A stretch of DNA of 64,000 bases from Elsinoe ampelina (taxonomy: Eukaryota). Positions 1,447-63,208 of the stretch are shown one piece after another. Both the position numbers and the translations under genes were made by a program. The first letter of the stretch is position 1; the number at the start of each line of letters is the position of its first letter. The DNA is taken from the NCBI GenBank assembly GCA_010093995.1, contig ML992507.1:555576-619575 (forward strand). The letters run 5' to 3'. The notes under the pieces were generated by a model. It did no database searches. It worked only from the letters and a program-made list of their open reading frames with translations, and was not told the DNA's origin.

Positions 1447-1497
1447 NNNNNNNNNNNNNNNNNNNNNNNNNNNNNNNNNNNNNNNNNNNNNNNNNNN
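1447..1497. other. Assembly gap (51 N)
   Basis: Run of N. Confidence 0.99.
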
Positions 1498-4475: not shown

Positions 4476-4677
4476 TGCTAAGAATATAGCTCTCTCTAGA
4501 TAATTAGGCCCGAAGGTTACATGACTATAGGTTATGTAATGCTAAGTCCTAGGGATTCATAGCTATTCTTTCCTTCGGTAGATAGACTCCTTAATCAATT
4601 AACTCGTCTATCACCTAACTAGTGTGCGGATTGGTTCTATACAATACTCCACCCCTAAACGTGTCTTCCGCTTAACA
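4476..4677 (+). repeat. 5' LTR of copia element A (202 bp)
   Basis: TGCTAAGAAT...CTTAACA followed by GGTTATAAGCCC. Confidence 0.93.
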
Positions 4678-9023: not shown

Positions 9024-9461
9024 TTTTAACCTCTACTATAGAGGCTAAATATATAGTAATATACTCTTATATAAAGAGATTATAGTTCCTATCTCAGTTA
9101 CTAAGAGACATAGGCTGTTATAAGATAGTTAGTTAATCACCTTAGAAGCTAACTATAAAGGAGTCTTAGAAAGCAATAATAAGATTACTCTTTACTACTA
9201 AGATCAATAGTAATAACTAGGCGGCTCTTTCACTTATAAAGGAGCTATATACTTATAAAAGAGCAAAACACATTAATGTTGCTTACTACTACGTTAGGAG
9301 GCTATAGAGGGACTAGAGGATATAGGTTAAGTTTATAAGGACAGTAGACATAGTAGCTAATAGGTTAACTAAGCTATTATAAGGTTAGAACTTTACGAGG
9401 TTTATAAAGCAACTTAGCTTATTATTAACCTAATAGCTCATCTATAGGAGCTAAGTGGGAG

Positions 9462-9663
9462 TGCTAAGAATATAGCTCTCTCTAGATAATTAGGCCCGAA
9501 GGTCACATAACTATAGGTCATATGATACTAAGTCCTAGGGATTCATAGCTGTTCTTTCCTTCGGTAGATAGACTCCTTAATTAATTAACTCGTCTATCAC
9601 TTAACTAGTGTACGAATTGGTTCTATATAATACTCTACCCCTAAACGTGCCTTCCGCTTAACA
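9462..9663 (+). repeat. 3' LTR of copia element A
   Basis: TGCTAAGAAT...CTTAACA followed by TSD AGATA. Confidence 0.93.
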
Positions 9664-12606
9664 AGATAGAGTATTAGCTCTAGTATAGGAGATTTACTTA
9701 CCTTAGAATTAAGAAGCTTAGCGATCTTTATAAAGTTATAACTCTTAAGAAATCTATTAACCTAAACTATAATCTGTCTATTCTATATAAGGTCTATTCC
9801 CTTACTAAGATAAGGAACAGAAGAGGTAAAACCTTATAGAGAAGACTAGAAGTTCTTTAGCTTATCTATACTAACATCTATAGCCTAATTAAAGTAAGTA
9901 GAGAAGGATTTAGATACTTCCTAGAGCTTATAGATAGCTACTTAAGGATAATATAGATTAGTCTACTTAAGACAAGAGATAAAGCTCTATAAAGGCTTAT
10001 TAAGTAGAAGCTAAGAGTTAAGAAGGAAAGTAATACTAAAGTTAAGGTTACTAGATTAAATAATACTAGTAAATTTAATAAGATTCTAAAGTAGTAAGAG
10101 CGCTAAGAAGGTATCTATTATACAACTACTAAGTTATATAATTTAATTTAGAATAGACTAGTAGAGAAAGGCATCTAAACCTTAGAGAATAGTATAAGAG
10201 CAATACTTAAGGACTTAAAGATGCTAAATAAGTTCTAGCCTAAAGTAGTTTAGGTAGATATATATCTAAGAAACAGGACAGTAACTAGACCTATAATTAA
10301 TAATAAGCAAGTTACACCTATTAAGGCCTATATAGGTATTAAGCTATTAGTTAATTATATTAGGGTCTAGAGCTATAAGGTATATACCTATATAAACCTA
10401 AAGTCTCTTCCTATACATAGAAGAAAAGATAAGCTTATAGATAGAGAGAGAGTAGAAGTATTCCTTAGCTATATAGATAGAACTAATAGGATATATAAGA
10501 TATAGGCACCTAATAGGAAGGTAGTAATTATATTACTAAATGTTAAATTCTCTAAGTTTAAGAAAGGTAGTAATATTAATCTTAGTATTAGGATTAATAC
10601 TATAAGCAATTAAGTACTAGTTAGGAGACTAGTTAGTAGACTAACTCAGATTTAGACTAAGGTTAGATCTAGGATAGACTAACTAAATTAGCCTATTTAG
10701 AATAAAGCACCTATAGGGAGAATCTTCTTATATATTAAGATCCTAAGAGTTAACTCTATTAACATTATAGATTTCTAACGTAGAGAAGAACTAATAGTTT
10801 AATCTTTACTAACTAACTATATAAGTTAATTACTTAAGAGATTAAGAGATAATAACTCTAATAATAAAAGCCCTAAAGCTAAGTACTATAGAGCTTTTAT
10901 TACTAAGTACATTAATTAGTAAGATAAGGTTAATAAGATTACTATAATAGCCTCTATTAAGTAATATGTTCTAATCCTAAGAGACTACTATAAGGCTGTT
11001 ACTAATCTAGTATAGGAAAGCAAATAGTAGAAAGTAATTAATATAGAGCTTAATACTCTATACTTAAATAATACATAGAAAGAGGTTATTCCTCTAAAGG
11101 GATCTAACTTAGTAATATCTAAATAGGTCTTTAATGTTAAGTATAACATAGATAGCTCTATTAAAAAGTTTAAGGCTAGACTAGTTACTAGAGGCTTCTT
11201 ATAGAAGTATAGTATTAACTATAAAGACATATTTATACTAATAGTTAAAGTAGATACACTTAGACTATTCTTTACTATTATATATATACTTAACCTTAAG
11301 TATTATTAGGTAGATATTAATAATACCTTTATAGAATTCTTTCTTTATAAAAAGATTTATATAAGGCTACTACCTAGACTAAAGGTTAGTCCTAGATTTA
11401 CCTTCCGGATTCTAAGGAGCTTATATAGACTTAAGTAAGCTACTAGAGACTAGAACTAGTACTATATCTCTAAGCTCCTAAAGCTAGGCTTTACTTAGAG
11501 TAAAGTAAATCTCTATCTTCTTATATACTATAATAAGAAGATTATTCTCTTAGTGTATATTAATAATATACTATTTATAGCATAAAGCAAGGAGAACATC
11601 TAGTAGTTTAAGTAAGAACTTAGTAAGATCTTTAAGATTAAAGATCTTAGTAAGGTTAATAAAGTTCTTAGAGTTAAGGTTATAAGAGATAGATAATAAG
11701 GCACCTTAAGACTTAATTAAATCTACTATATAAATAATGTACTATAGAGGCTTAATATAACCTCTAATAAGGTTACTCTAACAAAGTAGCTAATAGATAA
11801 TAAGCTTCCTTAAAGAGCTTAGAAAGATAATATAAAGTTTAGTAGAACTAAGTACTTATATACTATTAGAAGCTAGATGTACCTTAGCACTCTAATAAGG
11901 CTAGATACTGCCTTTACCTTAGAAAGGCTAAGTTAGTTTATAGTAGATCTAATAGACAGTTATACTATTAAGATAAAGAAGATATTAAGATATATTAGAT
12001 TAACTAAAGATCTTAGTATTATATTTAGAAGGAATAGAAATAAGACTCTTAAGGGATACTCTAATTTAGACTATACCTTAGACAAGTTAGATAGGGTCTC
12101 TATTCTTAGATATGTCTTTATACTTATAGGTAGTTCTATTAGCTAGATAAGTAGAAAGTAGAAGTCTGTTTTAATCTCTACTATAGAGGCTAAATATATA
12201 GTAATATACTCTTATATAAAGAGATTATAGTTCCTATCTTAGTTACTAAGAGATATAGGCTATTATAAGATAGTTAGGCAATTACTATAGAGGCTAACTA
12301 TAAAAGAATCTTAGAAAGCAATAATAAGATTACCCTTTACTACTAGGATTAATAGTAATAACTAAGTAGCTCTTTTACTTATAAAAGAGCTATATACTTA
12401 TAAAAGGGTAAAGCACATTAATGTTGCTTACTACTACGTTAGGAGGCTATAGAGGGACTAGAGGATTTAAGTAGAGTTTATAAGGACAGTAGACATAGTA
12501 GCTAATAGGTTAACTAAGCTATTATAAGGTTAAATCTTTATAAGGTTTATAAAGCAACTTAGCTTATTATTAACCTAATAGCTTATCTATAGGAGCTAAA
12601 TAGGAG

Positions 12607-12807
12607 TGTTAAGAATATAGCTCTCTCTAGATAATTAGGCTATAAAGTTATATAACCTTAAGTCATATAATGCTAAGGCCTAGGAATTTATAGCTATTCT
12701 TTCTTCTAGTAGATAGACTCCTTAATTAATTAACTTATCTATTACCTAATTAGTGTACGATTGGTTCTATATAATATTCTACCTCTAAATGTGCCTTCTG
12801 CTTAATA
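12607..12807 (+). repeat. 3' LTR of copia element B
   Basis: TGTTAAGAAT...CTTAATA followed by TSD AGGCC. Confidence 0.92.
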
Positions 12808-13623
12808 AGGCCTTATATTATTTATTATACTATACTTATTCCTCCTTATATATCTAGAAGAGTACTAAGAAGTTAACATTTACTACTTCTAGCCTCTAAG
12901 GCTTAGGGAGCCCCTTTAGCTTAATAGTCTTCTAGGGATTAATAAGGTTCTATATCTTAGTATTTAAAGCTCTTATCTTAATAATATATAGCTATCCTAT
13001 TTAGCTAATATAGTAAGAATAATAGGTGTTTTAGCTATTAAAGTGTTAGTATCTATAGTTGTTTATCTCTTTATTAATATCTAAATCTTATAGTTATAAT
13101 TAAGATAGTTCTTAATAGATTCTAATACTTAAAAAGCGAAATAATAGAGAATTAACTAATAGATAGAGTAAGAAAGTAACTAAGTAATCTACTTATATAG
13201 GGGTAGTTATACTAGGCTTATAACTGTTAACTTATATAGGGAGGGAAAAAGATTAATTACTACCTAAACTACTAAAATAAGGTAGATTATAACTATATAA
13301 ATACTTAACCTAGTATACTAAAAGATAGCTAAATCGAAAGAACTCCTTAATAGTAACAGATTAAGACAATAATTATCTAATTTAATCATAGATTAGTAAA
13401 ATGGTAAGATAGTGTTCAGTTCAGCCTTGGGATGAACTGAATCAGGGTCTTCTTGGCGCTCCAGCTTATGCCTCGGTTGACAAGGCGGATAGGTCACGTG
13501 CAAGACGGACCCACCTTGCTTACATCTATTCCCTTCGACGTTTTGCCATCCTACCCCACCACGATCCCCTATAGTCGAACAGACGGAATCGCAGGTAGCG
13601 TACAGGACGGTGCAACAGAACAA

Positions 13624-14883
13624 ATGGAAGAACGATCAAATCAGAAACGACACGCTGCATGCGATGAGTGCCGTAGGTGAAGGAAGTGGTTTGTAATCAA
13701 ACATGATGCTGAAAGTTGCAGGGTCCAAAAAATTGAAGTGTACTGGAGAACAACCAGCATGCACGCGATGTCAGAAAAAGAGCTTGTCTTGCGTCTACGC
13801 GCTACAGAAGACTATGGGCCGACCCAGAAAGCGCAGACTCGTATCCGAAGAAGACAAGGGATCGGCTTCTGAGCCGGTCGTTGCCACTGCAGAAAGACCG
13901 GTCGACGAGGACAACGACAACGATGGGGACTGGTTCGAAGGCCGTGGGATATTTTCCCCTCTCATGCCAAATGTACGATCTCAGCCATGGCCGGCTCTCG
14001 ACGACGTTCCTGCAGCCTGCCGTATGCACCCAGAACATCCTCCATCAGTGCCTCCGACTACTGCAGTGCCCGAGTTGACGGAGAGGTAAGAGAGCGCATT
14101 GTCGACCATCGTAGGCTCGCCGCTGACCATCCCAGTTGCGATTCCGCATCCTCCACAAATGGCTCTGGGGCGACATCGCAGTCGATGACTTCAACACCTG
14201 CTGCAGACTTTAGCATGCCATCGCCCGCAGAGTCTGCGACTCCCACCACATGCGCCTGCCTATCGTCGATGTACCTCTCACTGTCAACTCTGCAGACCAT
14301 GAACGATTTCACATTTCCAGGATCGCTCCACAAGTTGAGACAGTCAATTAGCTGCGCTTGGAACGTCTTACATTGCCCACTCTGTCCCCTGACCTACTTG
14401 ACCGGCTTCCAGAACGTACAACTACTCGGTATGTTCACCGTCAGCGTCGCCGAAAGATACTCCAAAGTCCTCGCAGCCATCGACAAAGAAGCCGAAGACG
14501 CCATTGCAGAAGGTCGCACCAAAAGCTTCCGCATGGGCGATCTCCAGATGGGCACTTCGCATCTACATTCCTCCGATCCCAAATTGTGTATGGCTCATAT
14601 GTGCCTTGACCTCGATCCTCGTCAATGGCGTCAGCTAGTCCGCCGGGTAGTGAAAGGAGAAATTATGGGTACGGCCCAGCACTGTTGTCCGTCCTTTATG
14701 ACTTTGATCGACGGCATGATCACGCGGCAAGAGAATTGGCATAAGATTGGCCCGCCAGCAGACTATCCCCGACCGTTCACAGAGGAAGAGCTCGAGATGA
14801 TCAAGAACCCTAAAACGATGAAAGGATGCCTGACAATGGTCTTTGAAGCCAAGAAGATCATCGAGCATATGACGTTCGATTAA
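13624..14883 (+). CDS. Zn2Cys6 binuclear-cluster transcription factor (3 exons)
   Basis: MEERSNQKRHAACDECR / intron 13673-13721 / SKKLKCTGEQPACTRCQKKSLSCVY; second intron from ~14086; C-terminal CACLSSMYL...LHCPLCP segment. Confidence 0.9.
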
Positions 14884-32665: not shown

Positions 32666-34907
32666 TCAGATGGCCAGATCCTTCACCTGTTGTAGCAGCG
32701 AAGTAGCCGTAGCCGTCAACTGCTCGCCTTGCTCATACTCAAGCGCAATGGAGAAAGTCGTTTTGATGTCATCAGCTGCGACTTCGAGCGCAGCCTTCTT
32801 GGCCTTTAGTCCGACCATGATCGCCTGTAACCTTGCTGGCAATTGGATTTCTCTGTGAATAGCAGTCAAGAGAATCGCCTCCAGCATGCGGAGCGCAAAA
32901 GGAGACCATTCAGCATATCGATACAGATACTCGCAAGCGAGCGTCATGAAATGCGCCGCCTGCTTGTCGCCCTGCTGTAGACGGAGCATTTCTTCGTGCG
33001 CAAGTCGAGGTAGACCGCTGAGTGACGGCAGCGGTACATCGTCCCATTTATCGACCATTCGCTGTAGCAGGGTGCGCACTTGAGTCATCGATGCCTGGAA
33101 GAGCTGCGCAGCGAATCTGTTCGACGCCTTGTAAGGCCGAAAGCACTCCATGATGATTGAGTGAACGATTATGTAAAGATGAGTGTTGTGCGGCGTGTAA
33201 TTATTTGCTGGTAGTTGGCTATCCGGCTGTGTCGAAGACCACTGTAGCAGATGCTGAAGCATGATCAAAGACATCTGGAAACCTCGCTTGTCCGTACTTC
33301 GGAAGTGACTTCTAAGGTTGCAGAATTCGACTATTAATTGCGAGAGGGCAGAATACGAAACATCTCCGTTCGCTTGAAACGACTGATCTGTTGCTGCCCG
33401 TGGCCATGAGACCCAACGCCTGGGGTTATCTGTACCGCCGACAATATGGTAGGACGGATGTCGTGCAATCATAGGTGGACCTGAATGGTGCAGAGACGTG
33501 CTTCTGGGGGGAAATTTAGAAGGGCGAGTCTCGTGGTCAGGGGTACTCACGCGCTCAGATTGAACAAGCCCCACGCCGCAATCGAGAGTTCGCGGTAGGC
33601 GGAGTAAGTGATGTGTCCAGCAGGTGGCACTTCGCGTGGTGTAACGCTAAACAATCCAAGACGAGTGGCTATCTGGTAGCCTTGAGTCATATAACCAAGA
33701 GCGAGATCTTCCTCGCCTAAGAGATAAGTGGGGATGCACAAAGCGCCCGCCGCAGAGACCAACCGCACATGAGTCTGCCCAAGTGATGCTGACCAGGATG
33801 CTTTTGCTTGCTGATGGAAATATGGTAACAGTGATCCGCAGGTAGGATCCATGTTGCGATACTGTGCCTGTACACCGTCAGATCATCGACTGAGGCTCCG
33901 TGGCATGGCGGACTTACGCAAGCGATGGAACAGCAAGCATTGAACAGGCAAGATGCTGGCGGATCCGGGACGCCGTTGATGAGGTGATCGATGAAGCGTT
34001 CTTCATCGAAGAGCCGGTAGGTAGGATGCCACCACGAGAAGTATATGCTTAAGATATCGACCATCTGGGTCCTATCTACCACGACAGATGTCCATCGCTC
34101 AAATGGTATCAAGTTCAGGGCTAGATTCACTGGAGCGAAGCGCCGTACATTGGAGGTCGTAAGACGTTCCGCTGCTGTAGCGTCAAACTGTTCAGTCTTG
34201 TGCCAGCCGGGCAGTATGGCGGTCGGTGCAGGCAGTATAACTTGCTCCTTCAACGAGATTGTCGTTTGCTGTTTGCCTGATCCAGCCATGGCGCCCAGCG
34301 AGTATGCAGCAGCAAAGAGACGGCGAAGTTGATGCTTCGACCCAGGATCCGACAAGATACCCGCCAGATTGAAGCGCACAATATTTGCTTCGAGGGTGTT
34401 AAGATGTCTTTGAGCTCGAAAACTTCCAGATCGCAATGAAGCGAGCAAGTCCTGAGGTTGTGCACCTGACCGTAATGAGCGTAAGACACCAGCGCCCTCA
34501 TCCTCCTCTAGACGTCGCAGACGATCGAATAACTCGTGCATCTCGGCCAATTCGTCCTGCTGAGATTTCTGCTTCTGTTTCAGAGCTTGGTGTCTTGAAT
34601 AGCCGGGCTCCACATCTAAAGATCGCAGTAAGCGGCAAGCCAGACATCGACGGGTCGCAGTCAATCACCATAAACGCAGACCTTGCCTAAATCCTGGCAA
34701 GCTGTACAAGTCGGACGATCATGGCTGCACTTTACACGGATAGTCAATATCACGGTTGAGTGTGAGATTCATGCAAGAGCTTACCTTATGCTTCCTTTTC
34801 CGACAAGCGTTACAAGCAACAGCTGCAGGGTTCGCCCCTCTGCGCTTTGCTATCGGTATTCTGTTGGGTGGTGCATCCACCCATCGGCCGCGCAACTCGT
34901 CTACCAT
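32666..34907 (-). CDS. Zn2Cys6 transcription factor with fungal TF middle region (multi-exon)
   Basis: ACNACRKRKHK / CSHDRPTCTACQDLGKVCVY / DVEPGYSRHQALK; WTSVV...YFSWWHP; AWGLFNL. Confidence 0.85.
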
Positions 34908-38691: not shown

Positions 38692-38875
38692 ACGCGTTCG
38701 TCGCTACCTCTTCAGGTTACCTCAAAATTTTCAAAATACTACCACACCAAATCTCCACTCCCCCAACTTCAGGCCCTGCTCACGCAGATCACCTGAATTC
38801 AGCATTCTTGCTCAGTGTCAACGACACCTTCGAATTGAATTCACCGCCGTCCACCACGGCTTCACACAACCAAAC

Positions 38876-39016
38876 ATGTCTTCCACCGTCGACGTCGCCA
38901 GGCTACGCGCCCCAGCCACAGTTTCAGGACTTCAGTCTATTCCCGCCTACCACACCAGCTCCAGCCCAGCAGCGACGAGCTCCCTCTCTCGCTTCGAATC
39001 AGCGTCCTACGTTTAA
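38876..39016 (+). promoter_or_regulatory. cpc-1 uORF2 (46 aa)
   Basis: CAAACATGTCT... to TAA at 39014-39016; out of frame with the main ORF. Confidence 0.8.
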
Positions 39017-39167
39017 TATTACCACGTTGCCGCGCACGAACTCAGCGCCCAACAACTTAGGAACTATTCGTCGACAATCTCGTCATCAAATCCCACCGGT
39101 ACCCCTCTTCAGTCAGCAGCAGAACTACCAGAACACGCCAGACACGCAACTAGCATTTGATCCCACC

Positions 39168-50120: not shown

Positions 50121-51007
50121 ATGGTGCTCTACTTCACAAGCAATGTCGTTCCAGGATCTGCCTACATCTATATGGGCAGGGACAAATTCGAGAGTAAGCA
50201 GTACTTCTTTGCACTTCACGAGCATACCATTGACGCTGTCTGAGACGAGGATCTGATCAAGTTCGGATGGGAAGAGGATGTCTGGTAGGTGTAATCGATG
50301 GACCACAAAATCTTTTGGCTCTGACCGAGTGGCAGGGTACGTGCAGTGGATCCACATGAGACAAATTGGAACTGACTTGTTCAGTTCCATGTCGACAACT
50401 TGTCGAGTGCTCACGTGTACGTGAGACTTCCAGAGGGTCAAACATGGGACAAGATTGAGGAACCTCTGCTGGTAGACTGCGCCCAACTGACCAAGGCCAA
50501 TTCCATTGAGGGTACGCAATGCAAGTGCAACAACATAAATATAGACTGATCGAGACAGGCAACAAGAAGGACAACATCACTGTCATCTATACTCCATGGT
50601 CAAATCTCCGCAAGGATGGCGGCATGGCGACCGGCCAGGTCTCCTTCCACGACCAGAAAAAGGTCAAGCGAGTCTACGTCGAGAAGCGGGAGAACGTCAT
50701 CGTCAACCGCTTGAACAAGACCAAGGTCGAACGTCACCCAGATCTCCGCCAGGAAAAGGAAGACCGACAGCGTGAGCTCCGAAAGAGGGACCAGAAGTCC
50801 AGGCAAGAACGAGTGTGTTTTGGCATCTGTATCTGTCTATCACTGGCTAATTGTGTACAGGCCAAAGAAGAAGCTCGTCTGGCAAAAGAGCGCAAAGAAG
50901 CAAAGTACCAGAAGGAGCATGCCTACGATGAATGGAACGACGAGGACGCTCTCGAAGCCTCGAACAACCAGGATCGAGACGCTGACTTCCTGGATGACTT
51001 CATGTGA
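50121..51007 (+). CDS. CCDC25/Jlp2-like NFACT-R (DUF814) protein, multi-exon including a 1-nt exon
   Basis: MVLYFTS...[34 protein letters not shown]...[23 protein letters not shown]...DDFM. Confidence 0.92.
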
Positions 51008-51018
51008 AGCTTGCAACC

Positions 51019-51414
51019 TCATCGAGATTTTCTCGACCACTCCTTATCGATGGCCCTTCGCTTCTGAGCAGACAAGCGATTCTTCTCCCGATAGGCGTGA
51101 GCCTTGTCTCGCACAGCTCGGACCTTCTCTGACTGCAGCTGATATTTGAAAGCTGCAGCCTGCTTCATGCTGGGTGTATAAGCCTCGTGCTGCTCCACCC
51201 CTCCCACTGCTGGCCACTCCATACATTCCATCGAGCTCGGTCCATCAGGTACTGCTCTGGCTGGGTCGCAAATGAGACAATCTCCGAGCAGCCATAGAAC
51301 TTCGCAGTCCCAGCCAGCAGGGTCTTGGTGGATGTGGTGTTCCTGACAAGGGCTGGTATATCTTGGTAGACCGTGGTGGCACTCCGGGTGCATGGGTACG
51401 ATCCACGTGCACAT
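51019..51414 (-). CDS. MC/CxH Cys-rich family, member 1 (short, 131 aa, most divergent)
   Basis: MCTWIVPMHPECHH...C...C...GDCLIC; lacks the downstream conserved block. Confidence 0.55.
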   Translation of the reverse strand: MCTWIVPMHPECHHGLPRYTSPCQEHHIHQDPAGWDCEVLWLLGDCLICDPARAVPDGPSSMECMEWPAVGGVEQHEAYTPSMKQAAAFKYQLQSEKVRAVRDKAHAYREKNRLSAQKRRAIDKEWSRKSR

Positions 51415-51866
51415 TGTGTGGGCAAGTAAGCAGGACAGGAGGATCTTTGCACTCCTATCCTTGCTCAGAGTTCCAACGGTATACATATAGAAGTCTTTGA
51501 ATGCAGGGCATTCCAAATAGCTGGCACCTGCTGTCAGAGGATCTATATTGGGTGAAATCTGCGAGCTGCGAAACCAGCATCAATGCACCTTCCCGCGAGC
51601 GGTTCTACAGGATCTGGATTGAATTTTATCCGAGTAGCGCTCAGTCATTGACAAATACATGTCTGCCGGTCTTGACAGCTGAGCATCGGGCGAATCGACG
51701 GCAACTATATGGCTCGTTGTTGAATGCACGCCCTGGATGAGCGGAATCTGTCTGCGCCTATGGAATGCAAATAGAAACACAACCGAAGTCCTCTGAATAG
51801 TGAAGAGGACCACCCAATGACGCCGCCAAACACCACTTATGACACTGCCACACTCTACAGTACCTC

Positions 51867-52811
51867 TTAGGGGTCATCCATTATCTCGCTGGAGTCATCG
51901 TACCCTGGATCAGGGTCGGTGTGGTCGTCCGCTCCGACGAGGACTCCGTCAAGAGACTCGGTGTCGCCGGAAAGGTCATCACCGACGTAGACCCAATCGT
52001 CAGCAGCCCCGCTGGTCTCCTTTCCGTCCTCGCCGAAGCTGTCGTGCGACTGATGAGTGTCCATCTGATTTGTCGTCTCAACCTCCTGCGGAGTGGTGCA
52101 TTGCCCCTCCAGACCACGAGGATGAGTTCGCACGAACGAGACAGTCGCTTCGCGCGTGAGTCTCACTCGACCAAACTTCTGTCTGGGCAAGACGCTGCAA
52201 GACTCAGCAAGGCAGGACTTTCGTACCTCGAGCAGCTTGTCGTTGAGGTCGCTTTCGATAATCGCAAAACCCTGCTCGAGATCATATCCACGTAACCCAC
52301 GCTCTTCGCAGCGAACAGCATCTTCCCACGCTGATCCTACGAGTGTAATCGCCGCTTTCCCAAAGCCCTCGGAGATTTTGATTCGCTTCTCATACGCTTC
52401 TTCCTCGATCCTAGCAACTTCCGCGTTTGATACCTCAGAAGAGATCAACGCTGGATGAGTGCGAATTAGCAGTCTCTCAAGCTCCAGATAAGCTATCCTC
52501 TCGTCAAACGCTCGCTCGCGACTCGGGGGCCCGACGGTGCGGAGTGAGCTCATGATTTCGTCGTCGGAGACCTCGGAATTGTCCACCATCATTCGCCCTG
52601 GTTTGTCGATGTATATGGAGGTACGGTAGGCATGGTTCTGCTCGTGGCAAGTCCTGCACACCCCATGGATAAGGAAACGGTGTGTGTCGAGATCAGCACA
52701 AACAGTCACAGAAGCTAGTTTTCGCGTCTTGTGGCGGTCGCTCTTGGTGCATACCACGCCCTTGGCAAGGTCATGACCACAGCGGGTGTTGAAGCGCACT
52801 ATGCGGCACAT
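51867..52811 (-). CDS. MC/CxH Cys-rich family, member 2 (314 aa)
   Basis: MCRIVRFNTRCGH...GVCRTCH...IYIDKPGRMMVDNSEVSDDEIMSSL; acidic tail. Confidence 0.8.
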   Translation of the reverse strand: MCRIVRFNTRCGHDLAKGVVCTKSDRHKTRKLASVTVCADLDTHRFLIHGVCRTCHEQNHAYRTSIYIDKPGRMMVDNSEVSDDEIMSSLRTVGPPSRERAFDERIAYLELERLLIRTHPALISSEVSNAEVARIEEEAYEKRIKISEGFGKAAITLVGSAWEDAVRCEERGLRGYDLEQGFAIIESDLNDKLLEVRKSCLAESCSVLPRQKFGRVRLTREATVSFVRTHPRGLEGQCTTPQEVETTNQMDTHQSHDSFGEDGKETSGAADDWVYVGDDLSGDTESLDGVLVGADDHTDPDPGYDDSSEIMDDP

Positions 52812-53613
52812 GGTGGTTGCGCTCGAATGTTCTGCTGTGGAAGAGGGCAGCGTCGAATTTGCGGAGTCCAAAGACCTGGCTGGAATAGTGGTGATTGTGA
52901 AAGACGCAACTTGTTGAAGGCGTGAAAGTCGGAAAAAGTACTACAGAAGTACCTTGAATGACAGGATCGACAAAAGTTCACTTCGGAGACGGCCCGCCCC
53001 TTCGTTACGAACTCGATACTGTGTCCTCAATCAGTATGAAGTCACCGTGAATCTGCCAAAGAGAGACAGCACCGGTGTGCTTTTTCACCAAATGCATGGA
53101 AATCTGGCCATTACAAACCTTGGAGGGCATGACAGGATCGCCCAGAATTCTCACGCTACCTTATCAGGGGAAGATCGTAAGATTCAGACTGGATATGCTT
53201 GCATCTTTCCAAAATTGGTGCGAAGAAGCAAACAATTGGTACCGGAAGTCTGCAGGTTGACGTTTCAGCATGCCTGCCAAGATATCACCATGCAGAGTCA
53301 ACCGACACCATGTGTCTGTCCTCACTGGAAAGCTCGATTCATCACATTGGTCGCATCATTCTCGAAGTCACGGCATACCAGGAGGATTCTGGGTGCCAAG
53401 ACATAAAGAAGAAGCGTCATCACGGACGCTACTTAGTCGAGACACATCACTTGAACCTTGAGGATATTAACATTGCCTTGATCTTTGGACCTATCATGAA
53501 GAAAAGCTAATGTCAATTTTCACCACTTCCGAAAACTCTTTCTGTTGAACCTAGTACTGCTTTTGTTCCCTCGGCGCTGTCCAATCGGAATTGTAACCCT
53601 TCGCCAAGTTCGA

Positions 53614-54705
53614 TCACTCAGCGTCCAACGATAATTCGTCTTCCGACATGGTCCAATCGTCCTCCTCGATCTCTGACCAGTCGTCGCCCGAGACTTCCAC
53701 GGCTGTGTCATCTAGACTGCCTGCCGACCCGATAATGTAGCCCTCAGTCAAGTCGTCGTCATCATCATCCTCAAAGTCATCGATCCAGGTATCGGTAGAG
53801 CTGTCGCCTGGATGAACATGCAGGCCGTCCTGAAGGTCATCGTGACGGTCATCAAATGTTCCTTCTGGTAGTCTTTCGATATGCACAGCCCCCCCGTCAG
53901 CCTGGCTATCTGCGTCAGGCGTGAGAATTGTCGAGTCCGTGAAGGGACTGTCGGGAGTTGCGGCGTAGTCAATATCTCCATTAGCAAGATGGATTGCAGA
54001 TGACGTGGGGCTTCCGTGGCAGAACTTGTCGATATCTTCCGGTTTGACTCGAGAGAAGAGGACAGCATCATGTGACATAGTTCCAATCACCACCATTGAA
54101 GACTGGGGAAGGACTTTTGTGCACTCGAGCAAGCACTTCTTGCGAGCGACGGACATTATGCCGTTGACTTTGCGCTCGAATAGCTCTGGATTTGCGTCGT
54201 ACTCTTGGCCCAAGGCGGCCTGGTGGTGTCTCATAGTCGACAGCGAGACAGCTATGAAGTCTTTGATCAAGTTCCGCCATCGCTTCCATGTCTCGGACTC
54301 GACTTTCATAGCCTCCTCATTCGAGAGTCGCGAAGAGATGATGACTGGCCGAGCACGAAGCATCAGCAGCTGCATTGTATGAACAGCGAGTGTTTCTTCC
54401 ATGGACCGACGCTCGCTCGGTGGCCCAGCGGCGTAAATCGAGTCCATGAGTTCGTCATCGGAGATGAAAGAGTCGTCAACCACCAAGGAGCCACCTTTGG
54501 TGACGTGGATCTTTGTGAGTCCTGGGTGTCCCTTGTCATGGCAGGTCTCGCAGACACCACGGAATCCGAGATTGTAGATCCTTCTGCTCGCACAAGATGA
54601 GACAAGTGCCAAAGGATTGGTTGCATCTATGGGAATACCACTGCATTGACTCACGTGACTCCTGGCGTGGCCACAACGGGGCCTGATGACTGTGAAATTG
54701 CACAT
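53614..54705 (-). CDS. MC/CxH Cys-rich family, member 3 (363 aa)
   Basis: MCNFTVIRPRCGH...GVCETCH...IHVTKGGSLVVDDSFISDDELMDSI; very acidic tail with Trp residues. Confidence 0.8.
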   Translation of the reverse strand: MCNFTVIRPRCGHARSHVSQCSGIPIDATNPLALVSSCASRRIYNLGFRGVCETCHDKGHPGLTKIHVTKGGSLVVDDSFISDDELMDSIYAAGPPSERRSMEETLAVHTMQLLMLRARPVIISSRLSNEEAMKVESETWKRWRNLIKDFIAVSLSTMRHHQAALGQEYDANPELFERKVNGIMSVARKKCLLECTKVLPQSSMVVIGTMSHDAVLFSRVKPEDIDKFCHGSPTSSAIHLANGDIDYAATPDSPFTDSTILTPDADSQADGGAVHIERLPEGTFDDRHDDLQDGLHVHPGDSSTDTWIDDFEDDDDDDLTEGYIIGSAGSLDDTAVEVSGDDWSEIEEDDWTMSEDELSLDAE

Positions 54706-56591
54706 GGTCAGCCACGCGCTTTCGTTGCAAGAGAAAGAATCTTTCGATGCTGCGAGTCCTGAGCGATGGCTCAGTTGTGAGAGTGGCGAAAGTGTTAGAA
54801 GGGGTGAAACCGACGAAGTGAGTCGAAGACGATTGGGTGCGACAGGACGAAGTCTCGAAGTTCGAGTTTTGCTGGCAGCACTTTGTGGCACGTGATCCAC
54901 CCAAAGCGAACCCCCTATCGGACGCGGGCCGTCCCTCTCAAACATATTTGCTGGTTCCCTGCCAGCTCATCACATACTCTCACCACTTTGAGTAGCGGAT
55001 GCAACGACTCTGTCGTCATGACCGTTATTGAGCAGCCCTAGAGTTGACAGATCCCAAAGCAGATTTGACACGATGCTGTGTCATACGCTGTAAACACTTG
55101 CGTGGCTTGAAGAGGGCCACAAAGCCGTCACAGACACCACGCGCTAGAAGAATACAACGCAACGATCATTGGATCAGATTCAATGCTCTTATATGGTATG
55201 TATGAATAGCAAACGAAAACGACCGGAAACCTGCAGAACAACAGCGCAGCATTCCGAGATACATCCTTTACTAGCTTGAAGTGGAAAGCACACACACTAC
55301 CCGATTCAGAGATTTCTTCCTAGAGATTCCCTGTGGCTTCGCCATGGAAAGCATCGAAGTCGACTCCTCTCTTCACCTGCAACTCACGGACCCGCCTTGG
55401 ATTCGGCGGAGGTTAACGCCGGTCTCGATTCTCGTCGAGACAGAACGTACTGATCGAACTAAGGAAGTCTCACCGATCCATTCATTTCTTTAGTGTGGGA
55501 TCTGACGACGCGGAAAATCATGCAATCTGGACAAAGGAGCAAACATGAACCACCGAAAACTCCCGAGTCACCGATGTTGCGGCCCGATCAGGATATCTCA
55601 GCCATTCAATCTATGTCGCTGCAAAATCTTCAGCACCGTCACACGCTCCCGAAAGTTCATATGCAATACCGCTCTCCTTGGTCTTTTGACAAGCTCTGGC
55701 ACCGTCTAGGACTCGAAAACTGTCATCGGCACCCAGTCTGATCATGCATCACACTCTATTCTGAAGAACCACGGACTGCACTGCCGTGGCGTCCGTGGCG
55801 CCAGAAGATCATTGACCATTCCTCGACCACTTATGTGTGTTCATATCATTGGGACAGTGAGTTGCCGACCGGGTGATTTGAGGTGTCTCGATTCGATCAA
55901 TTGGTGAGCGCACGTGGTCTCGAAGATTGTGTCTCTACACATGATGCTTGATGATCTGCTGCAGTGGGGAAAGGTTTCATTACTAAGCTGGTAATGCTGG
56001 GAGCTCGAAATTTATGTCGGTACCCGATGCTGGAGAAGTATAGGGGAGCAGGGACCGCCGCATCAGATGACTTGAATCCGGCTCTCATCTGGGCGCAGTC
56101 CGGACATCTAGAACTGGTGTTCCGTTTGCCACATCAGATGCTATGCAAATCGTGCAAGAATACTGGCCGCAAAAGAGTAGACGTCATGTTATCAGATTGA
56201 GATATCACAGCCAGCGCAGCGCTAAGCGTAGCGGCGGTCACGACTTGGATGACCACCATAGAGAGTAGGAATTGCGAGAACGATTAGATGAGCTGCATGA
56301 CATATGTAGCGCCTGGATCCGGCAGGAGCAAACGGGTATCACATAGAAATACGCTCGCCCGGCGACACAAGCACGAAGAGCAGAACATGGCTCATTGCAT
56401 TTGCCACGCGAAGGAACGCTACCGAGATTGTCGCAGCACAAGTTCGGGAGACAGCTTGTATGCGATCGGGCAACAACACTGCCCGCCACATCTCGTCTGT
56501 CGTACAAGTGAAAGCTTTCTAGGATTGTCACTGGCCCCGAAAAACGACCTCACTCGTATCGCATGAATGTAGCCGGCTGATTAGTCACTGC

Positions 56592-57536
56592 CTAATTCTC
56601 ACGCGAATCTGCGTCAGACGTTTCGGGATCCGCCCTTGTCGTGGTGGTGCTGACTGCGGCTGTGTTGCGGTCTGGATTGAGCAGCTGCCATTCACTGACC
56701 GAGCTGTCAAGTGAGTCACTCGTGGAGTCTCCGACGCTCATGGAGCCTTCCGAGATCATCACCGACTTGTCTGTCATGCTACCTCTCCTCGTGGAGAACC
56801 CTGTCCCTTGAATGTCGGCTTGCGAGTCGGACTCCCAGCTGATTGAGGAGGTTTCCCCGCCCGTGTCGGAGATTGCATCCACTGGACCCAAGATCGAAAA
56901 GACTGCGGTCAAAGGCGGTGGAGCCGTTGAGCTACGTTGATGTCGGACTCGATTGCCAGCAAATCCTATGAGACATCTCCGACGGAGCGATTGCAGATTT
57001 GCCCGGATGGCTTGTACCATGGTGTCGTTCTCCAGCCTTCCTGTGTTAATGTCGGCATCCAGATGGGGGCATCCTGCGATCAGATATCGTGTGATGTGAA
57101 GACCCTCTTTCCCGAAACGTTCCAGGACAGAGCGGAAGCGAACTGGGAAACTGTCCTGTAATTGCTTTGGGCCAGTCTCATCCGGCTCACCTCTTGTGGG
57201 TATACCAAGAGAGACCTTCTCAATCAAAGCAGCGAGCATGGCCACAATTGAGCTTTCCGCTATCAATTGACGGTGGAGTGTGCGCTCATTCTCGTTGAGC
57301 AATCCAATGATCTCCTCAAGACAAACATCGGCATGTGTCATCACGATTGTACAATTTCGCGTGATGTAGACATAACCGGTATCAGCATCAGCCCTGTGCC
57401 GATGACAGTCCTCGCACAGGCCCATGAAGCTAATGACAATGTTGTCTTCTTGCTCTGGCGGATCCTGTGAGGGTTTTCCATGAGACCAGACTTGAGAATG
57501 ACCACAAGAAGCCTTGAAAATTGTTGTTTCGGTCAT
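56592..57536 (-). CDS. MC/CxH Cys-rich family, member 4 (314 aa, first Cys lost)
   Basis: MTETTIFKASCGH...GLCEDCH...VYITRNCTIVMTHADVCLEEI...LRRRCL; Ser/Asp-rich tail. Confidence 0.75.
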   Translation of the reverse strand: MTETTIFKASCGHSQVWSHGKPSQDPPEQEDNIVISFMGLCEDCHRHRADADTGYVYITRNCTIVMTHADVCLEEIIGLLNENERTLHRQLIAESSIVAMLAALIEKVSLGIPTRGEPDETGPKQLQDSFPVRFRSVLERFGKEGLHITRYLIAGCPHLDADINTGRLENDTMVQAIRANLQSLRRRCLIGFAGNRVRHQRSSTAPPPLTAVFSILGPVDAISDTGGETSSISWESDSQADIQGTGFSTRRGSMTDKSVMISEGSMSVGDSTSDSLDSSVSEWQLLNPDRNTAAVSTTTTRADPETSDADSREN

Positions 57537-58174
57537 GTTGCACGGGTCCACTCCGGGGGCGTGATATTTGATAGAGGGGAGAAGAGATGCCTTGAAGCCA
57601 CGCTGAATCAAAACGACAGGTACCAGTCAGCAGAACGGCAACTAGCACATGATCAGGCACCAATCGAGTGAAAGCATCGAAGTGTCCAGGAGCGGTGCGA
57701 TCTTCACAGCACGCTGAGGGGTACCAAATCTTGTACCACATATACCGCGAATTGGTGTGTTGCACAATGTGCGACCATCCACACGGAGTGTCCCGGAGCA
57801 AACAATCGGGATCTTTCGCGTCCTCCAGAGTCTGGTACCCAATGGTCGCGTGGCGATACGCAGCAACGATGAGTTCACGCCACTGCGCTTGGAACACAGG
57901 ATTTCATCGCGAGGAGTGGGTCAGATGATCCCAGACATGCATTTCGCCGACAACTGCGCATGCTGCATGGTATTTGCACAGTTTTCACAGGACTTACAAC
58001 TGCAACACACTGGCAGAAGGGTGATCGCCATTGTATTCGCCCTCAATTGATGCGGTCACGGACACCGCAGGCGAATACAGGCTGGGACTATGCTTGAGGG
58101 GTGGATCACTCTGTTCATTCTAAAGCTACCGCCTCCATGTGAGATGCTCCAATGACAACCGCTCCGCACTACAA

Positions 58175-59032
58175 TCAAGACAGAAATATGTAACCCCCGA
58201 CGGCATGTTCGCTGCTTGAACTGCTTGGTGTGATGATCACCCGGTCATTCTCATCATCACTTCCATCTGCAACATCGACCACTGCATGACACCCCGCACA
58301 CTGCTCATGGTCGTCAGAGTTCGCTGCTGAGAGCTCGGAGACCTCCTCATTATTGTCGCTATGCACCGATAAGACCAGCATCTGCAACCCGACATCTCCA
58401 GGGTTTGTCAGGAGCCTTGCGTCACTGGATCGAGGGATGATGCTGGCTATGTTTGAGATACGTTCCCTTCGAGCGCTGACTAGCTGGTCCGAAATGTCAC
58501 AGGCTCTTGCGTATCTTCTTGCCGAGTTGGTGGCCTGTTAAGCAGGTGTTACGGCCTCACCCGATGAGCCCCGAGGTATCTGAAGCATGTTCGCCGAGAA
58601 GTCCATGCAGTCATCCGGTAGACTCCTTTGTAATTCGACCGCTCTGGCTGTAATGCGGATGGCCTCCTCTCACGACTCCGCCGCAGCGAGCGCCACCAGT
58701 ACTATGCATAAGGACCAAAATTTCCATTACCATGAATTCCTCCGCGGCGAAGCGACTGTGAGTGCTCGATAGTAGAGTGAACAAGCATTCCATCAGCTCC
58801 TCATCTGTCATGCACGGGTTGTCGTCATGATAAAGACCTTCGATCCGGAGACGTAGCCTGTGTCGTGGCAATCCCGACAGGCACCTCACAGCCCTACACG
58901 GGAGTGGCGCTGAGCCCTACGGATGGTCAAAATGTCAGCATAACGGAGAGCATCTGCGGAGAATTTCTCGCAAATACTTATTCTGCATTGGCGATGACCG
59001 CACGCAAGAGGTAGAGTGACTCCGATACACAT
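58175..59032 (-). pseudogene. MC/CxH Cys-rich family, member 5 (pseudogene)
   Basis: MCIGVTLPLACGH...GL*GACRDCH...KVFI with TGA at 58888-58886, then a frameshift to DDNPCMTDEELMECL; acidic tail ends at 58175. Confidence 0.8.
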
Positions 59033-59749
59033 GATTGATTGTAGAATCCGTGGATGGAGTTGCGTGCGAGGGAGGATAGCGTAAACAGCTGGTGCTTGGC
59101 GCTGCTAGAAACTCATTTCGGTTTCAAGAGACGGCCAAAGTATCTTCTGAGCTGTCACTGGAGGTTCTGCTCGAATCGATGGCCTGGCAACTCGCCGGGT
59201 GAACCTCTCGACCAATGCCCCGAAGCCATGATATAGTGACCAATCATCACATCCTTGTGGTGTATGACGGCGATAGAATGCTAAAAAGCTTACGCATTGA
59301 ACGATCGTTGGCCAAGAATGATTGAACTGGCTCGATTCGTCATTTTGTAGCAACATTCAACGAGAAAGCAAACGTCTTTGGGATACCACATAGGTCTTGC
59401 TTGACAGGACGGTGCTTTCTGGCCAGCAGTCACAAACGACCGAGTCGATCTGTTGGTCTAGCCCGAGGCTCTGTAACATCAGATCGATCACCTAGAAGCC
59501 GATAGAAGCCAAGGCTTGTAAATTGAACGCGGGCAATGTTATGTGACTCGACGTATCAGAATCGTCACAGACTTATGCGATGCCACTCGAAACGCTACTC
59601 CTGAACTTGAAATCATCAATGAAGCTGTCGTTTGTCCTTTCGATATTACGACTTGCTATGGAATACTCCCAGCCCAATACCCATGCTTTACTAACGTATA
59701 CTGAGCCCAATGATGGCACGGCATCCGACAAGATCGAAGAACGGCGTAC

Positions 59750-60595
59750 TCAAATCCGCAAGTCGTCAACACTTCCTGAACTGGTAGGCGTGAAGATGAC
59801 GAGACCTTCCACCTCCTCTTCTAAACTGTCATCGTCGTATCCGTCACAAATTGCGGGTGTCATGTCAGGAGAAATGTTCATTGCCGAGAAAGGCGGATCG
59901 ATCACTGTTGTCGCCCTGATCATGTCCGAGGAGTAACCTCGACCAAGACTTGCAGTCCAGGGGTCAATGAAAAGCTCTCCAGAAGCTCTGGGGCGCGCTC
60001 TTATCTTTGCCACCACTGGCTGGGCTACCATCGTGAACATACCAAGAAGGCAGAGGTTTCGGAAATCCCTCAGTGCGGACCAGCCGTCACTGAGCATGCG
60101 ATCTGCAGCTGGAGTCGGAAAGTCTTTGTTCGCCGCGTCCAGTCTGTTGATCCTGTGGACAATCTGGCTGGAGCCTGTCAGAAAGTCCCACATCAACGAT
60201 TTGCGCCGTTGCTCCACATCCTCGACCAATTCCTGTACTCTATTGGTCTCGAAATTGACCACTGGTCGGATTCTGGAGATCAGCTTGAAAAGCTGCTCCA
60301 AAACATTCGCTTCAGCGGCCCACCTAGATGCTGCCGAATTGTCTCCTTGGTGTAGAGAATCGACCAACTCTTCGTTCGAGATGTTCGGATCATCAATCAT
60401 TAGTATTCCCCGCTTCGTGATGAAGACCTTCTCCTTCATCTTCGAATGCTCCGGATCATGATGGCACCTATCGCAAAGGCCAACGAGAAGCAATTGTAGT
60501 TGCAAATTCCGTTTGCACTCCTCGATGTTCCCGCAAGGGCGAGGCAGTGAGTAGAGATGCTCACACAAAGTGTGGAAAAAGAGAGTCTGACACAT
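59750..60595 (-). CDS. MC/CxH Cys-rich family, member 6 (281 aa)
   Basis: MCQTLFFHTLCEH...GLCDRCH...KVFITKRGILMIDDPNISNEELVDSL...FRNLCL; acidic tail. Confidence 0.8.
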   Translation of the reverse strand: MCQTLFFHTLCEHLYSLPRPCGNIEECKRNLQLQLLLVGLCDRCHHDPEHSKMKEKVFITKRGILMIDDPNISNEELVDSLHQGDNSAASRWAAEANVLEQLFKLISRIRPVVNFETNRVQELVEDVEQRRKSLMWDFLTGSSQIVHRINRLDAANKDFPTPAADRMLSDGWSALRDFRNLCLLGMFTMVAQPVVAKIRARPRASGELFIDPWTASLGRGYSSDMIRATTVIDPPFSAMNISPDMTPAICDGYDDDSLEEEVEGLVIFTPTSSGSVDDLRI

Positions 60596-61299
60596 AGTCG
60601 TTGGAGAAGGGTCGAACGTGATTAGGTGTGAGGTTGAAGAGGTTTGGAAGCGTCAGAGATCCGATCCTCGAGATATTTATCCTCATTGCAGAGAGGACTG
60701 ACAGCGAGTAGCTGGACCCAGTCTTGTTTCGACATGAAGATTACTACTTTCAGTTGCACCACGTGGCGCGTTCTTTTCCAAGGTTCAATTGACTTGTCAA
60801 CGCGCGAAGGATTCGTCACACGGCATGCCTTCTGTCACGAATCTGACAATTGTTCACGGATGAATATGATACGCCGAAAAAATGTGACGTGTGAACGATT
60901 GGATATCCTTATATATCATCCACTCTCTTTACTCCACGAGATGACAAATTGCGAGACAGCAAACAACGAACATCCTCTTCTAATCAGCAAACCTGGAATA
61001 TCATCAGGCGCTGAGCTGAGCCATAGTGCATGATGTCATGTACCCTTTCAAGTCACGACTAGAGGGGAAATTATGGGTTACGAAACAGGTGTGCCATGTG
61101 GGCACCCTTCAGCACCGTTTCGTGATCGTCTATGAAGTTTCAGAGATCTCAACGGACCAGTGAGAAAGCCCTCGGACCTCAATCTAGCTCTGAATCCTGC
61201 CGGAACAGTAGTTCACAAGCTTTGTCGTCCGAGTGTTCATCCTCATCTCGATTCGGCAAGCTTGTACTTCATCCCAGAAGCCCCTCTCGTCTTGCCACT

Positions 61300-61930
61300 C
61301 CTCTTAGGCTTCTACGCTCTTGGAAGTTCAAGCGTCCTGTTTGTAGCAAGAAACCCCAGGAAGATCCTGAGTATCAGTCGACTGCGGAATACTCTGACCG
61401 CTTGTTCATGGTTTGCCACCGGCAGTTCGTTGTCCGAAGAGGAGGACGACGATGAAAGGGCGATCGCGAAGCTCTTCGACCTCGAGCCACCTTTCTTCGA
61501 AGCTCAATCGCCTTGATATCCGACCAAAGCTTTGCTATCTCATCGCTCGTCGATGTTCAGTCTCGAATTCCACCTCAAGTCTCTCTTGGTACATCCGCAC
61601 AGCGACGACTCTGGCCATGAAACTGTTTATCTCGTCTCCCACTATGCTGACTGTGCTCACATTACCGTTCGACAACGGTTCCTCGTCGTTGTAAATGAGT
61701 ACTCGTATGATGTGTGCTGGAAGGTCGAGGTGATGCAACACAACACATCCTTCTGTGGTGAAGTGAACACACTGGAGCGTTTCTGGCGAAGCAGCTCTGC
61801 ATGCGTCGTTGAGTTCCATTACTCCTATCCGCGCCCTTTTTCGCCGTCAACAGTCTTTCACATGCTCACATGGTTTCTTGACTTCCACCGGGTGGTCGCA
61901 TGATGGTCGGAAAGTGATCGTGACGCACAT
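61300..61930 (-). pseudogene. MC/CxH Cys-rich family, member 7 (pseudogene, sister of member 8); 3' end approximate
   Basis: MCVTITFRPSCDH...PCEHVKDC* (TGA 61849-61847), same frame continues ...TEGCVVLHHLDLPAHIIRVLIY...; TAG at 61537-61535; later frameshift to SSSSSSDNE. Confidence 0.8.
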
Positions 61931-62509
61931 GTCGCGTCCGTTGCCCACTATCTATCCGATGCAAGCTCGAGGTAGCTCAATGAGCTTGAGGTGGCGACGA
62001 ATTGTCGAGATGGAAGGCGAGATGGATCTCAACCCTACAATAGCCAAGAACTTACTTATCATTGTCCTCCAGCGGTTATGTACGAGTCGATTTATTTTGC
62101 GTCACAAAAGCCTTGCTCCATACTCACCATGTAAAGCATGGAGTCCTTTCGATTGAAAATGATCGAACGATATCCCAAGAAGCACCACGGAGAACAGAGA
62201 TGTGTAACACCGGGTAGTTCCAAGAATAGGCAAACATGTTCTCAGCTGGAAACGGCTCCAAAAGAGCGAGACAGGAGATACAGGGTCAGCTGGATATTTG
62301 GAGCGTATTCGATCACTCAAACGGTCCAGGGGTTCCAGTATAGGACAACTATAGATGAACCAAGAATTTTGATCTAGAAGCAAAGGTGGTGGAGCTCGCA
62401 GCTACCTCGGAGCTATGATAAGCATACTACACACCCGCCATGCGTCGCCCAGTGCAAGATGGCAACCTTGGTCTTGACAAGAGTCTGAAAAGCTCCCCCT
62501 CTGGTCTTA

Positions 62510-63208
62510 TTACTCTTCGTCGCTCATATCAGAGGATAAAGAGGAGGATTCGTGGCAAAGACCTTCCTGTCTTGCTGTTTCTCGGAGTAAGCCAGCCTCT
62601 TCGTAAGTGAGCAGCGGACTGCGAGTTGCTGCTTCCATATCCGCTCGAAGCTGTCGGCGCCTCAAACGATAGAGCTGGATCCGTTCAATCGCATCTGTCA
62701 AGCTCTCGTGGTCGGATGAGGAAGCCGAAGATGGAGAATCAGGGTCTCCATAAACCGTGTCAATGTCTCTGATGGTAGTAGCGAATCTCACCAAGAAGTC
62801 GTTAAACCTTCTCGCCCTATCCTGTCGTCGTATCTCCCTCTCTACGACCGCGTCTACTGCCTCATTCATTTCTCGAGCACTTGTGACCCTTGTCATAAGG
62901 TTTTGACGCTCATCCATCAGTTGCTGATTTGCCGCTTCTTGGTTCCCAGCGTTCTCGTTCTCATCAACATAGAGCAGAGATCGAATGACCTGATCAGGCA
63001 GGGAAAGATGATGAATAGTGATCTCGCCATCGGTATTCAGTGATGCATCTTCGGAGATCCCCAGAGACGCCTCTCTACAGGGATGACACAAGGCGACCGC
63101 TCGCAGATGGACTTCGGTGTTTTGTTGGCAGCTTTCTCCTTCCTCGCAAGGTCTTGTCGCTTGAACGCGATGACGACATGATGGTCGCCAATTGATAGTG
63201 ACACACAT
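62510..63208 (-). CDS. MC/CxH Cys-rich family, member 8 (232 aa)
   Basis: MCVTINWRPSCRH...PCEEGESC...ALCHPC...TDGEITIHHLSLPDQVIRSLLY; ends SSSLSSDMSDEE. Confidence 0.78.
   Translation of the reverse strand: MCVTINWRPSCRHRVQATRPCEEGESCQQNTEVHLRAVALCHPCREASLGISEDASLNTDGEITIHHLSLPDQVIRSLLYVDENENAGNQEAANQQLMDERQNLMTRVTSAREMNEAVDAVVEREIRRQDRARRFNDFLVRFATTIRDIDTVYGDPDSPSSASSSDHESLTDAIERIQLYRLRRRQLRADMEAATRSPLLTYEEAGLLRETARQEGLCHESSSLSSDMSDEE

Follow-up and report, generated by a model that had tools for sequence, protein, structure and literature searches.

A tandem array of old, intronless genes with a putative zinc module in Elsinoe ampelina

Introduction

Orphan tandem gene families of fungi are confined to narrow clades, lie in tandem, lack introns and Pfam domains, and comprise both intact and decayed copies. 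Here we describe a family with all these traits on the minus strand of a 64,000-nucleotide stretch of Elsinoe ampelina DNA (assembly GCA_010093995.1, contig ML992507.1, positions 555,576 to 619,575 of the forward strand; hereafter the window, in whose own numbering all coordinates are given). The array differs from such families in the age of its copies, which pair 1:1 with proteins from outside the window and are 15-32% identical to one another, and in having both a conserved set of putative Cys/His ligands and an upstream motif. Old copies, conserved ligands and an upstream motif point to a maintained family rather than to open reading frames (ORFs) that arose recently de novo.

The encoded proteins also recall other described systems. 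Gal4-type activators carry the motif CX2CX6CX5-12CX2CX6-8C and run from a Cys-rich zinc module through a helical region to an acidic tail with bulky hydrophobic residues. The array proteins have the same order, with a putative zinc module at the N-terminus, but this six-Cys spacing was not found in our alignments, Pfam returned no Zn_clus match, the module is not consistently basic and DNA binding is not indicated. The TAZ zinc finger, which has HCCC zinc sites in a helical fold, is likewise Cys/His-rich, and a cluster of 57 Ascomycota proteins that neighbours the array family at a score of 0.86-0.88 has been so named automatically. However, Pfam gave no zf-TAZ match, the N-terminal models of the array proteins are strand-rich (with low confidence) rather than helical, and the members of that cluster have no Pfam family in common. 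Autophagy receptors with an Atg8-interacting motif (AIM) or LC3-interacting region (LIR) share with the array proteins an acidic-flanked W-x-x-[LIV] in a disordered tail, conserved here between orthologues. Unlike in these receptors, the motif is missing from some array members and no cargo-binding domain was recognised.

Results

Eight homologous units, five of them intact

The initial annotation had proposed a tandem array of about eight Cys/His zinc-finger-like genes, here called u1 to u8. All eight of the N-terminal peptides that it quoted were located on the minus strand, in lists of ATG-started and stop-to-stop ORFs and in direct translations, and the start spacing that it gave (1.3-1.9 kb, with one interval of 2.8 kb) agrees with the measured values of 1397, 1894, 2831, 1496, 1563, 1335 and 1278 nt. 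The minus-strand array is thus real, but its membership had to be revised: u5 and u7 are pseudogenes, u1 is unsupported, and the 2.8-kb interval is occupied by a decayed unit that had been overlooked, here called u3b. With u1 left out, eight units are supported (u2, u3, u3b, u4, u5, u6, u7 and u8). Between 51.8 and 63.2 kb they comprise five intact paralogues of 232-363 aa (u2, u3, u4, u6 and u8), the two pseudogenes and the one relic.

Judged from their sequences, the eight supported units are homologous. Across the whole 64-kb window, the six-frame translation contained eight matches to M[CT]-x8-C-x-H, none of which falls outside the array or on the plus strand, compared to a mean of 0.02 and a maximum of 1 in 200 shuffles of the region. 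These matches include u3b and exclude u1. The units also align well beyond the Cys spacing. With the intact proteins as tblastn queries against the window, E-values ranged from 1e-34 to 1e-3, linking u2 to u3 (1e-34), u3 to u6 (2e-10), u6 to u4 (2e-6) and to u8 (1.7e-6), u8 to u7 (1.2e-20) and u3 to u5 (1e-3). A further u2 match at 38860-39120 (E 0.003) lies inside a bZIP ORF and was treated as chance. A family hidden Markov model (HMM), built from the five intact cores and run over all stop-to-stop fragments of the window, ranked intact units (E 1e-65 to 1e-86) above pseudogenes and pseudogenes above the relic. Amino-acid identity between paralogues is low, as given above, and neither DNA-level repeats between units nor a signature of repeat-induced point mutation (RIP) was found in the array.

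All units lie on the minus strand. The most downstream of the supported ones, u2 (51867..52811), is intact, encodes 314 aa beginning MCRIVRFNTRCGH and matches the family HMM with an E-value of 1.6e-79. Next to it, u3 (53614..54705; E 2.3e-84) is intact with 363 aa counted from MCNFTVIRPRCGH; its reading frame is open upstream as far as 54945, and its orthologue P0005 begins at MC. The relic u3b (55841..55942; E 0.012) reads MCRDTIFETTCAH from a Met at 55942 and stops after 33 codons. Its HMM match is confined to positions 1-23, and three-frame translation revealed no further family blocks. Farther along, u4 (56592..57536; MTETTIFKASCGH; E 5.6e-79) is again intact with 314 aa. The pseudogene u5 (58175..59032; MCIGVTLPLACGH) is matched in fragments (E 0.027 and 0.029). 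Its reading frame is first interrupted by a TGA at codon 49, it contains one or more frameshifts, and what remains of an acidic tail is found in a different frame. It is followed by the intact u6 (59750..60595; 281 aa; MCQTLFFHTLCEH; E 7.8e-86). The second pseudogene, u7 (about 61535..61930; MCVTITFRPSCDH; fragments with E 8.6e-9 and 3.1e-6), carries a TGA at codon 28 and a TAG at codon 132 and has lost the second Cys of its CxxC; its nearest relative is u8. The latter (62510..63208; 232 aa; MCVTINWRPSCRH; E 1.6e-65) is intact; its tail is short, and it diverges most from the other members, with a branch length of 2.44 in the tree described below.

The membership of u1 (51019..51417; MCTWIVPMHPECHH) is doubtful. 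It has a C-x9-C spacing and a basic C-terminus and lacks an acidic tail. No significant tblastn similarity to any unit was seen, the family HMM gave no match even at E<=10, no Pfam family was recognised, and the upstream element described below is not present. What u1 appears to have in common with the family is limited to its Cys positions.

An N-terminal module with four invariant Cys/His residues

Besides M1 and one Leu, the residues C11, H13, C52 and C55 (u2 numbering) are invariant in all eight sequences that bear the N-terminus. Metal binding, as suggested in the initial annotation, is plausible on this basis; four such ligands are what a single zinc site typically has, and most likely they hold one zinc ion. 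Most members have C2, C21 and C40, which are jointly missing in the u4/P0009 lineage, while H56 is missing in u8 and P0009. These four positions may form a second, dispensable ion site. In AlphaFold2 (AF2) predictions, the N-terminal model of u6 is strand-rich and the u2 core has strands in its N-terminal part. Prediction of a homodimer with zinc gave a score of 0.00, which weighs neither way.

The proteins could be assigned to no named family, in line with what had been noted at the outset: Pfam, PDB sequence and fold searches all returned nothing. Pfam hmmscan of six proteins at E<=1 gave no match reaching the gathering cut-offs, and the rows for aBig_2 (12.4 bits; cut-off 27) and CRF (13.3 bits; cut-off 22.1) are at chance level. 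The best PDB sequence match, the BluB-like flavoprotein 3eo8 (E 0.0017, profile positions 66-141), was also judged to be chance. Foldseek found no match in pdb at E<=0.001, an absence that proves little with query models of predicted local distance difference test (pLDDT) scores near 59. VIA-align wide found none among 48,161 chains at Z>=5 with a similarly low-confidence model (pLDDT near 59), the best Z of 2.9 involving the terminal helix only.

A shared middle block, a helical region and an acidic tail

The N-terminal module is followed by the block (I/V)x(I/V)TKxGxLxVDDxx(I/V)SD(D/E)E(L/I). The shared block had been reported for most copies; we find it clear in u2, u3 and u6 and weaker in u4 and u8. 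Its hydrophobic strand followed by a CK2-type acidic serine tract presumably resembles SUMO-interacting motifs. The four reported copies of RxxCL are present. In the AF2 model of the u2 core, helices span residues 129-170 and 175-205 (pLDDT 75-86).

The tails are strongly acidic, with isoelectric points of 4.1-4.2 and net charges of -5 to -40. An acidic-flanked W-x-x-[LIV] is kept in the tails of three orthologous pairs, u2/P0002 (DDWVYV/DDWIYI), u3/P0005 (DDWSEI/DDWSEV) and u4/P0009 (SEWQLL/SEWHLV), and P0007 has it too. In u2/P0002, conservation of the tail equals that of the core, reaching 88% in the last 40-residue window.

No signal peptide is apparent from hydropathy, as had been stated: in the five intact units, the first 20 residues average -0.65 to 0.16 on the Kyte-Doolittle scale. 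A segment of transmembrane (TM) grade was not found in any unit of the window, the highest 19-residue Kyte-Doolittle mean being at most 1.53. The proteins appear to lack the hydrophobic segments of secreted or membrane proteins and are presumably intracellular.

Relatives are few, and four pair 1:1 with array members

A profile search of 1,835,955,588 protein representatives at E<=0.001 returned seven proteins, six of which we count as true members. Three come from the window itself, namely P0001 (an N-truncated model of u2), P0003 (u8) and P0004 (u4), and three are outside relatives (P0005, P0006 and P0007). The seventh, P0008 (profile E 3.2e-5), is an unrelated 713-aa repeat protein that matches only profile positions 126-155 in four stretches, and was dropped. 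With six true members among 1.84 billion representatives, the family is taxonomically restricted. Word-based searches added two hypothetical proteins of Elsinoë batatas, KVT40_006411 (P0002) and KVT40_006084 (P0009, found with trimmed cores), which are the only named relatives. A search of the Elsinoe literature turned up nothing on the family, which does not show that it is absent from print.

In tblastn searches back to the window, P0002 was 76% identical to u2, P0005 72% to u3, P0009 72% to u4 and P0006 53% to u6, with P0007 being about 23% identical to all units. In a maximum-likelihood tree of ten proteins, from which the pseudogenes and u1 were excluded, the 1:1 pairs u2/P0002, u3/P0005, u4/P0009 and u6/P0006 received 98-100% support; the branches of u8 and P0007 are long and the deep forks weak. 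Because four units pair 1:1 with outside proteins, the duplications are older than the split from the species that have the orthologues. The proposal of birth-and-death evolution is borne out as regards death, since three of the eight supported units are decayed. Recent birth finds no support, given the low identity between paralogues, the lack of linking DNA repeats and the 1:1 orthologues. By these comparisons the array is old and retained, with loss ongoing.

The locus tags of the E. batatas orthologues of u2 and u4 (KVT40_006411 and KVT40_006084) are 327 numbers apart, even though the same longest contig, of 1,924,158 nt, is listed for both; between u2 and u4 the window has only u3 and u3b. 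Either the locus tags are not colinear in E. batatas or the array may be split there.

A GTTTGCT element lies upstream of seven units

The heptamer GTTTGCT (AGCAAAC on the plus strand) occurs on the minus strand between 53227 and 63519, with starts at 53227, 55208, 56327, 57797, 59367, 60958, 60986 and 63513. These copies lie 267-509 nt upstream of u2, u3, u3b (at -391), u4, u5, u6 (two copies) and u8, that is, of seven of the eight units; the element was not found upstream of u7. A ninth copy within the array lies at 55538, and 9 of the 12 minus-strand copies of the 64-kb window fall in the 13-kb array. In 50 shuffles, the best of all 7-mers was found in 3-5 of the eight upstream regions. The block shared around GTTTGCT is longer in u2 and u3. 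Since u8 has the element with no family unit upstream, and u2 has none downstream, the element belongs to the 5' side of a unit and not to the 3' end of the preceding one. Four of the eight sites extend to TGTTTGC, which fits the forkhead core, RYMAAYA. GTTTGCT is a candidate common cis-regulatory site, and the genes are probably co-regulated.

Intact units are transcribed and unspliced

RNA contigs were available from four runs (X3, X4, X6 and X8) of three studies. Each of them has contigs in which the neighbouring CCDC25-like gene is spliced and therefore contains RNA; of the four joints, which lie at 50193 to 50861, three are GT..AG. Contigs cover u4 whole and u2, u3 and u6 in part. The entire coding sequence of u4 lies inside one colinear unspliced X3 contig (56240-57733). 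For u2, contigs span 50861-52672 (X3) and 52622-52861 (X4), the latter spanning the upstream ATG; for u3, 53594-54087 (X3) and 53964-54178 (X8); and for u6, 60368-60600 (X6) and 59638-59868 (X4). Gaps in X4, X6 and X8 cover within the array do not imply silence. No splice joint was seen inside the array, compared to four in the CCDC25-like neighbour, in agreement with the intronless state originally described. It should be noted that in the high-depth X3 contig the convergent neighbour gene is joined to u1 and u2. All 20 RNA contigs from a second sample matched the window at 99% identity or more, and none was listed with a difference.

The stored model of u2, P0001 (241 aa), begins at an internal Met and omits the Cys/His module. 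As the X4 contig at 52622-52861 spans the upstream ATG, this model is probably truncated. The orthologues P0002 (246 aa) and P0006 (265 aa) also begin at an internal Met, with the module omitted.

Other features of the contigs concern intergenic DNA and the CCDC25-like gene. An X6 contig upstream of u4 (57658-57926) differs from the window, over 264 nt, by three substitutions and a deletion of 5 nt, and the X6 contig over the 5' end of u6 is identical to it; the differences upstream of u4 suggest strain variation in intergenic DNA. The CCDC25-like gene has its stop at 51007. Its X4 and X6 contigs, which come from two studies, continue for about 510 nt beyond this stop and end together at 51519/51520, shortly before the start of the oppositely oriented u1 ORF. 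The shared end could be that of a long 3' untranslated region or of an overlapping antisense u1 transcript. One joint of the CCDC25-like gene (50284-50384) was reported with GT..CA ends.

Discussion

The best explanation of these data, to which we give a rough probability of 0.45, is that the array is an old, genus-restricted tandem family of zinc-module adaptors or co-regulators. The proteins would be soluble, and their plan would consist of a zinc module of about 60 residues, a strand-plus-acidic block, a long helical hairpin and a disordered tail rich in Asp, Glu and Ser. The folded half would dock on a target, and the acidic tail would recruit a partner via short linear motifs. This partner might be the transcription machinery, the tail acting as an acidic activation domain, or Atg8, the tail acting as an AIM/LIR motif. 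The combination of a zinc module, a helical hairpin and an acidic tail with an aromatic motif points to an adaptor or co-regulator, and the regulatory adaptors that the initial annotation had offered as one alternative fit this architecture better than its other alternative, a conflict system. A more specific version seems quite unlikely, namely that the C-x-H...C-x2-C module, to which a second Cys/His set beginning at Cys2 may optionally be added, is a zinc-binding fold not described before and that the proteins are co-regulated, genus-specific adaptors recruiting Atg8 or the transcription apparatus to lineage-specific targets via their W-x-x-[LIV] tails.

Several observations weigh against the adaptor reading. 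The joint loss of C2, C21 and C40 concerns a single lineage and so counts as one event, which leaves the second ion site weak. The AF2 models are poor, with mean pLDDT of 59.8 for the u2 core and 59.2 for the u6 N-terminus, and values below 50 for u2 residues 1-43. The net charge of the module ranges from +6 to -4 across members, which argues against a common nucleic-acid-binding surface. In the tails, W-x-x-[LIV] is absent from u6, P0006 and u8, and short motifs of this type arise by chance in acidic sequence. The null for GTTTGCT consisted of mononucleotide shuffles, and the element could be residual homology instead of a functional site. As for transcription, the RNA contigs carry neither strand nor expression level; u8 has thin X3 cover only (depth 1.0-1.4), and X3 covers 28 of 30 bins, intergenic DNA included, such that genomic DNA may be present in this run.

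The rival explanations differ in what they address. One concerns the origin of the module and is compatible with an adaptor role: the module would be a fast-diverged branch of widespread small Ascomycota proteins without a Pfam family, and the array a local expansion in which a helical region and an acidic tail were added. ESM Atlas queries with the u3 core and with residues 1-110 of u6 gave the same Ascomycota clusters (166 aa, 194 members; 169 aa, 'TAZ-type domain-containing', 57 members) at cosines of 0.86-0.88 with 174-192 shared features. However, by the calibration of the tool, scores below 0.9 are leads only, recognition of u3 was low (1680), the HMMER profile search found nothing beyond the six close relatives at E<=0.001, and zf-TAZ was not matched. 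We consider this origin possible, if doubtful. The proposal that the array is a conflict system (allorecognition, drive or defence), under diversifying selection with copy-number turnover, can draw on the tandem arrangement of divergent paralogues with three of eight supported units decayed, and on a lineage-restricted family in which orthologue identity is moderate (53-76%). Positive support was not found: the four 1:1 pairs imply copies that are old and retained, there are no recent duplicates, no known conflict-family domain and no TM segments of the wtf kind, and the contigs of the second sample match the window at 99% identity or more in 20 of 20 cases, without any listed difference. It is very unlikely in our view.

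Two further explanations are more improbable again. The proteins might be unconventionally delivered, infection-related factors acting inside host cells. The family is restricted to a genus of plant pathogens, and in runs that carry the label of another organism there are contigs that match the spliced neighbour gene at 100% identity, as well as short fragments from u2, from the leader of u4 and from the 3' end of u6. Such contigs would be consistent with fungal RNA in foreign tissue. Yet no N-terminus resembles a signal peptide, and secreted effectors are typically small, whereas these proteins have 232-363 aa and long acidic tails. The array itself sits in ordinary GC-normal DNA, some 37 kb away from the AT-rich, RIP-like block, and RNA contigs carry no expression level; we regard such a role as highly improbable. 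The least probable explanation is that function is being lost in the family, whose remaining ORFs would be transcribed, nearly neutral survivors of a decaying array. While three of the eight supported units are dead and u8 is very divergent (branch 2.44) with thin RNA cover, five ORFs of 232-363 aa are still open, four of them have intact counterparts elsewhere at 53-76% identity, the same four residues are invariant in all members, and the u2/P0002 tail is as conserved as the core.

A lineage-specific tandem family is ordinary biology for a fungal genome; the finding is real and is useful for annotation. The immediate gain is that P0001 and P0002 start at an internal Met, so that current models hide the defining module of the family. 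If the reading as zinc-module adaptors is correct, an undescribed Cys/His module would be added to the zinc-binding domains, and crop pathogens of this genus would offer a clean case of an orphan family that is old, maintained and probably co-regulated. The more specific version, were it true, could also bear on the pathogenic lifestyle of Elsinoë.

Genomic surroundings

The first 14 kb of the window (1-14000) are AT-rich, with a GC content of 0.19-0.34, TpA/ApT of 1.55-1.98 and (CpA+TpG)/(ApC+GpT) of 0.07-0.62, a bias of RIP type. GC-normal, gene-rich DNA extends from about 14 kb onward. Mobile-element genes adjoining the array were not seen among the flanking genes identified with Pfam. Those between 14900 and 50000 are ordinary housekeeping genes and encode Rad10/Ercc1, Myb, a ferric reductase, a POT/PTR2 transporter, two alpha/beta hydrolases, bZIP, an ORC1/Cdc6-like AAA+ protein, WD40 and Cupin_8. 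Between 32666 and 37198 there are four ORFs of 255-326 aa that match no Pfam family and resemble neither one another nor the array family; two of them, at 32666-33646 and 33717-34664, could be exons belonging to a single gene.

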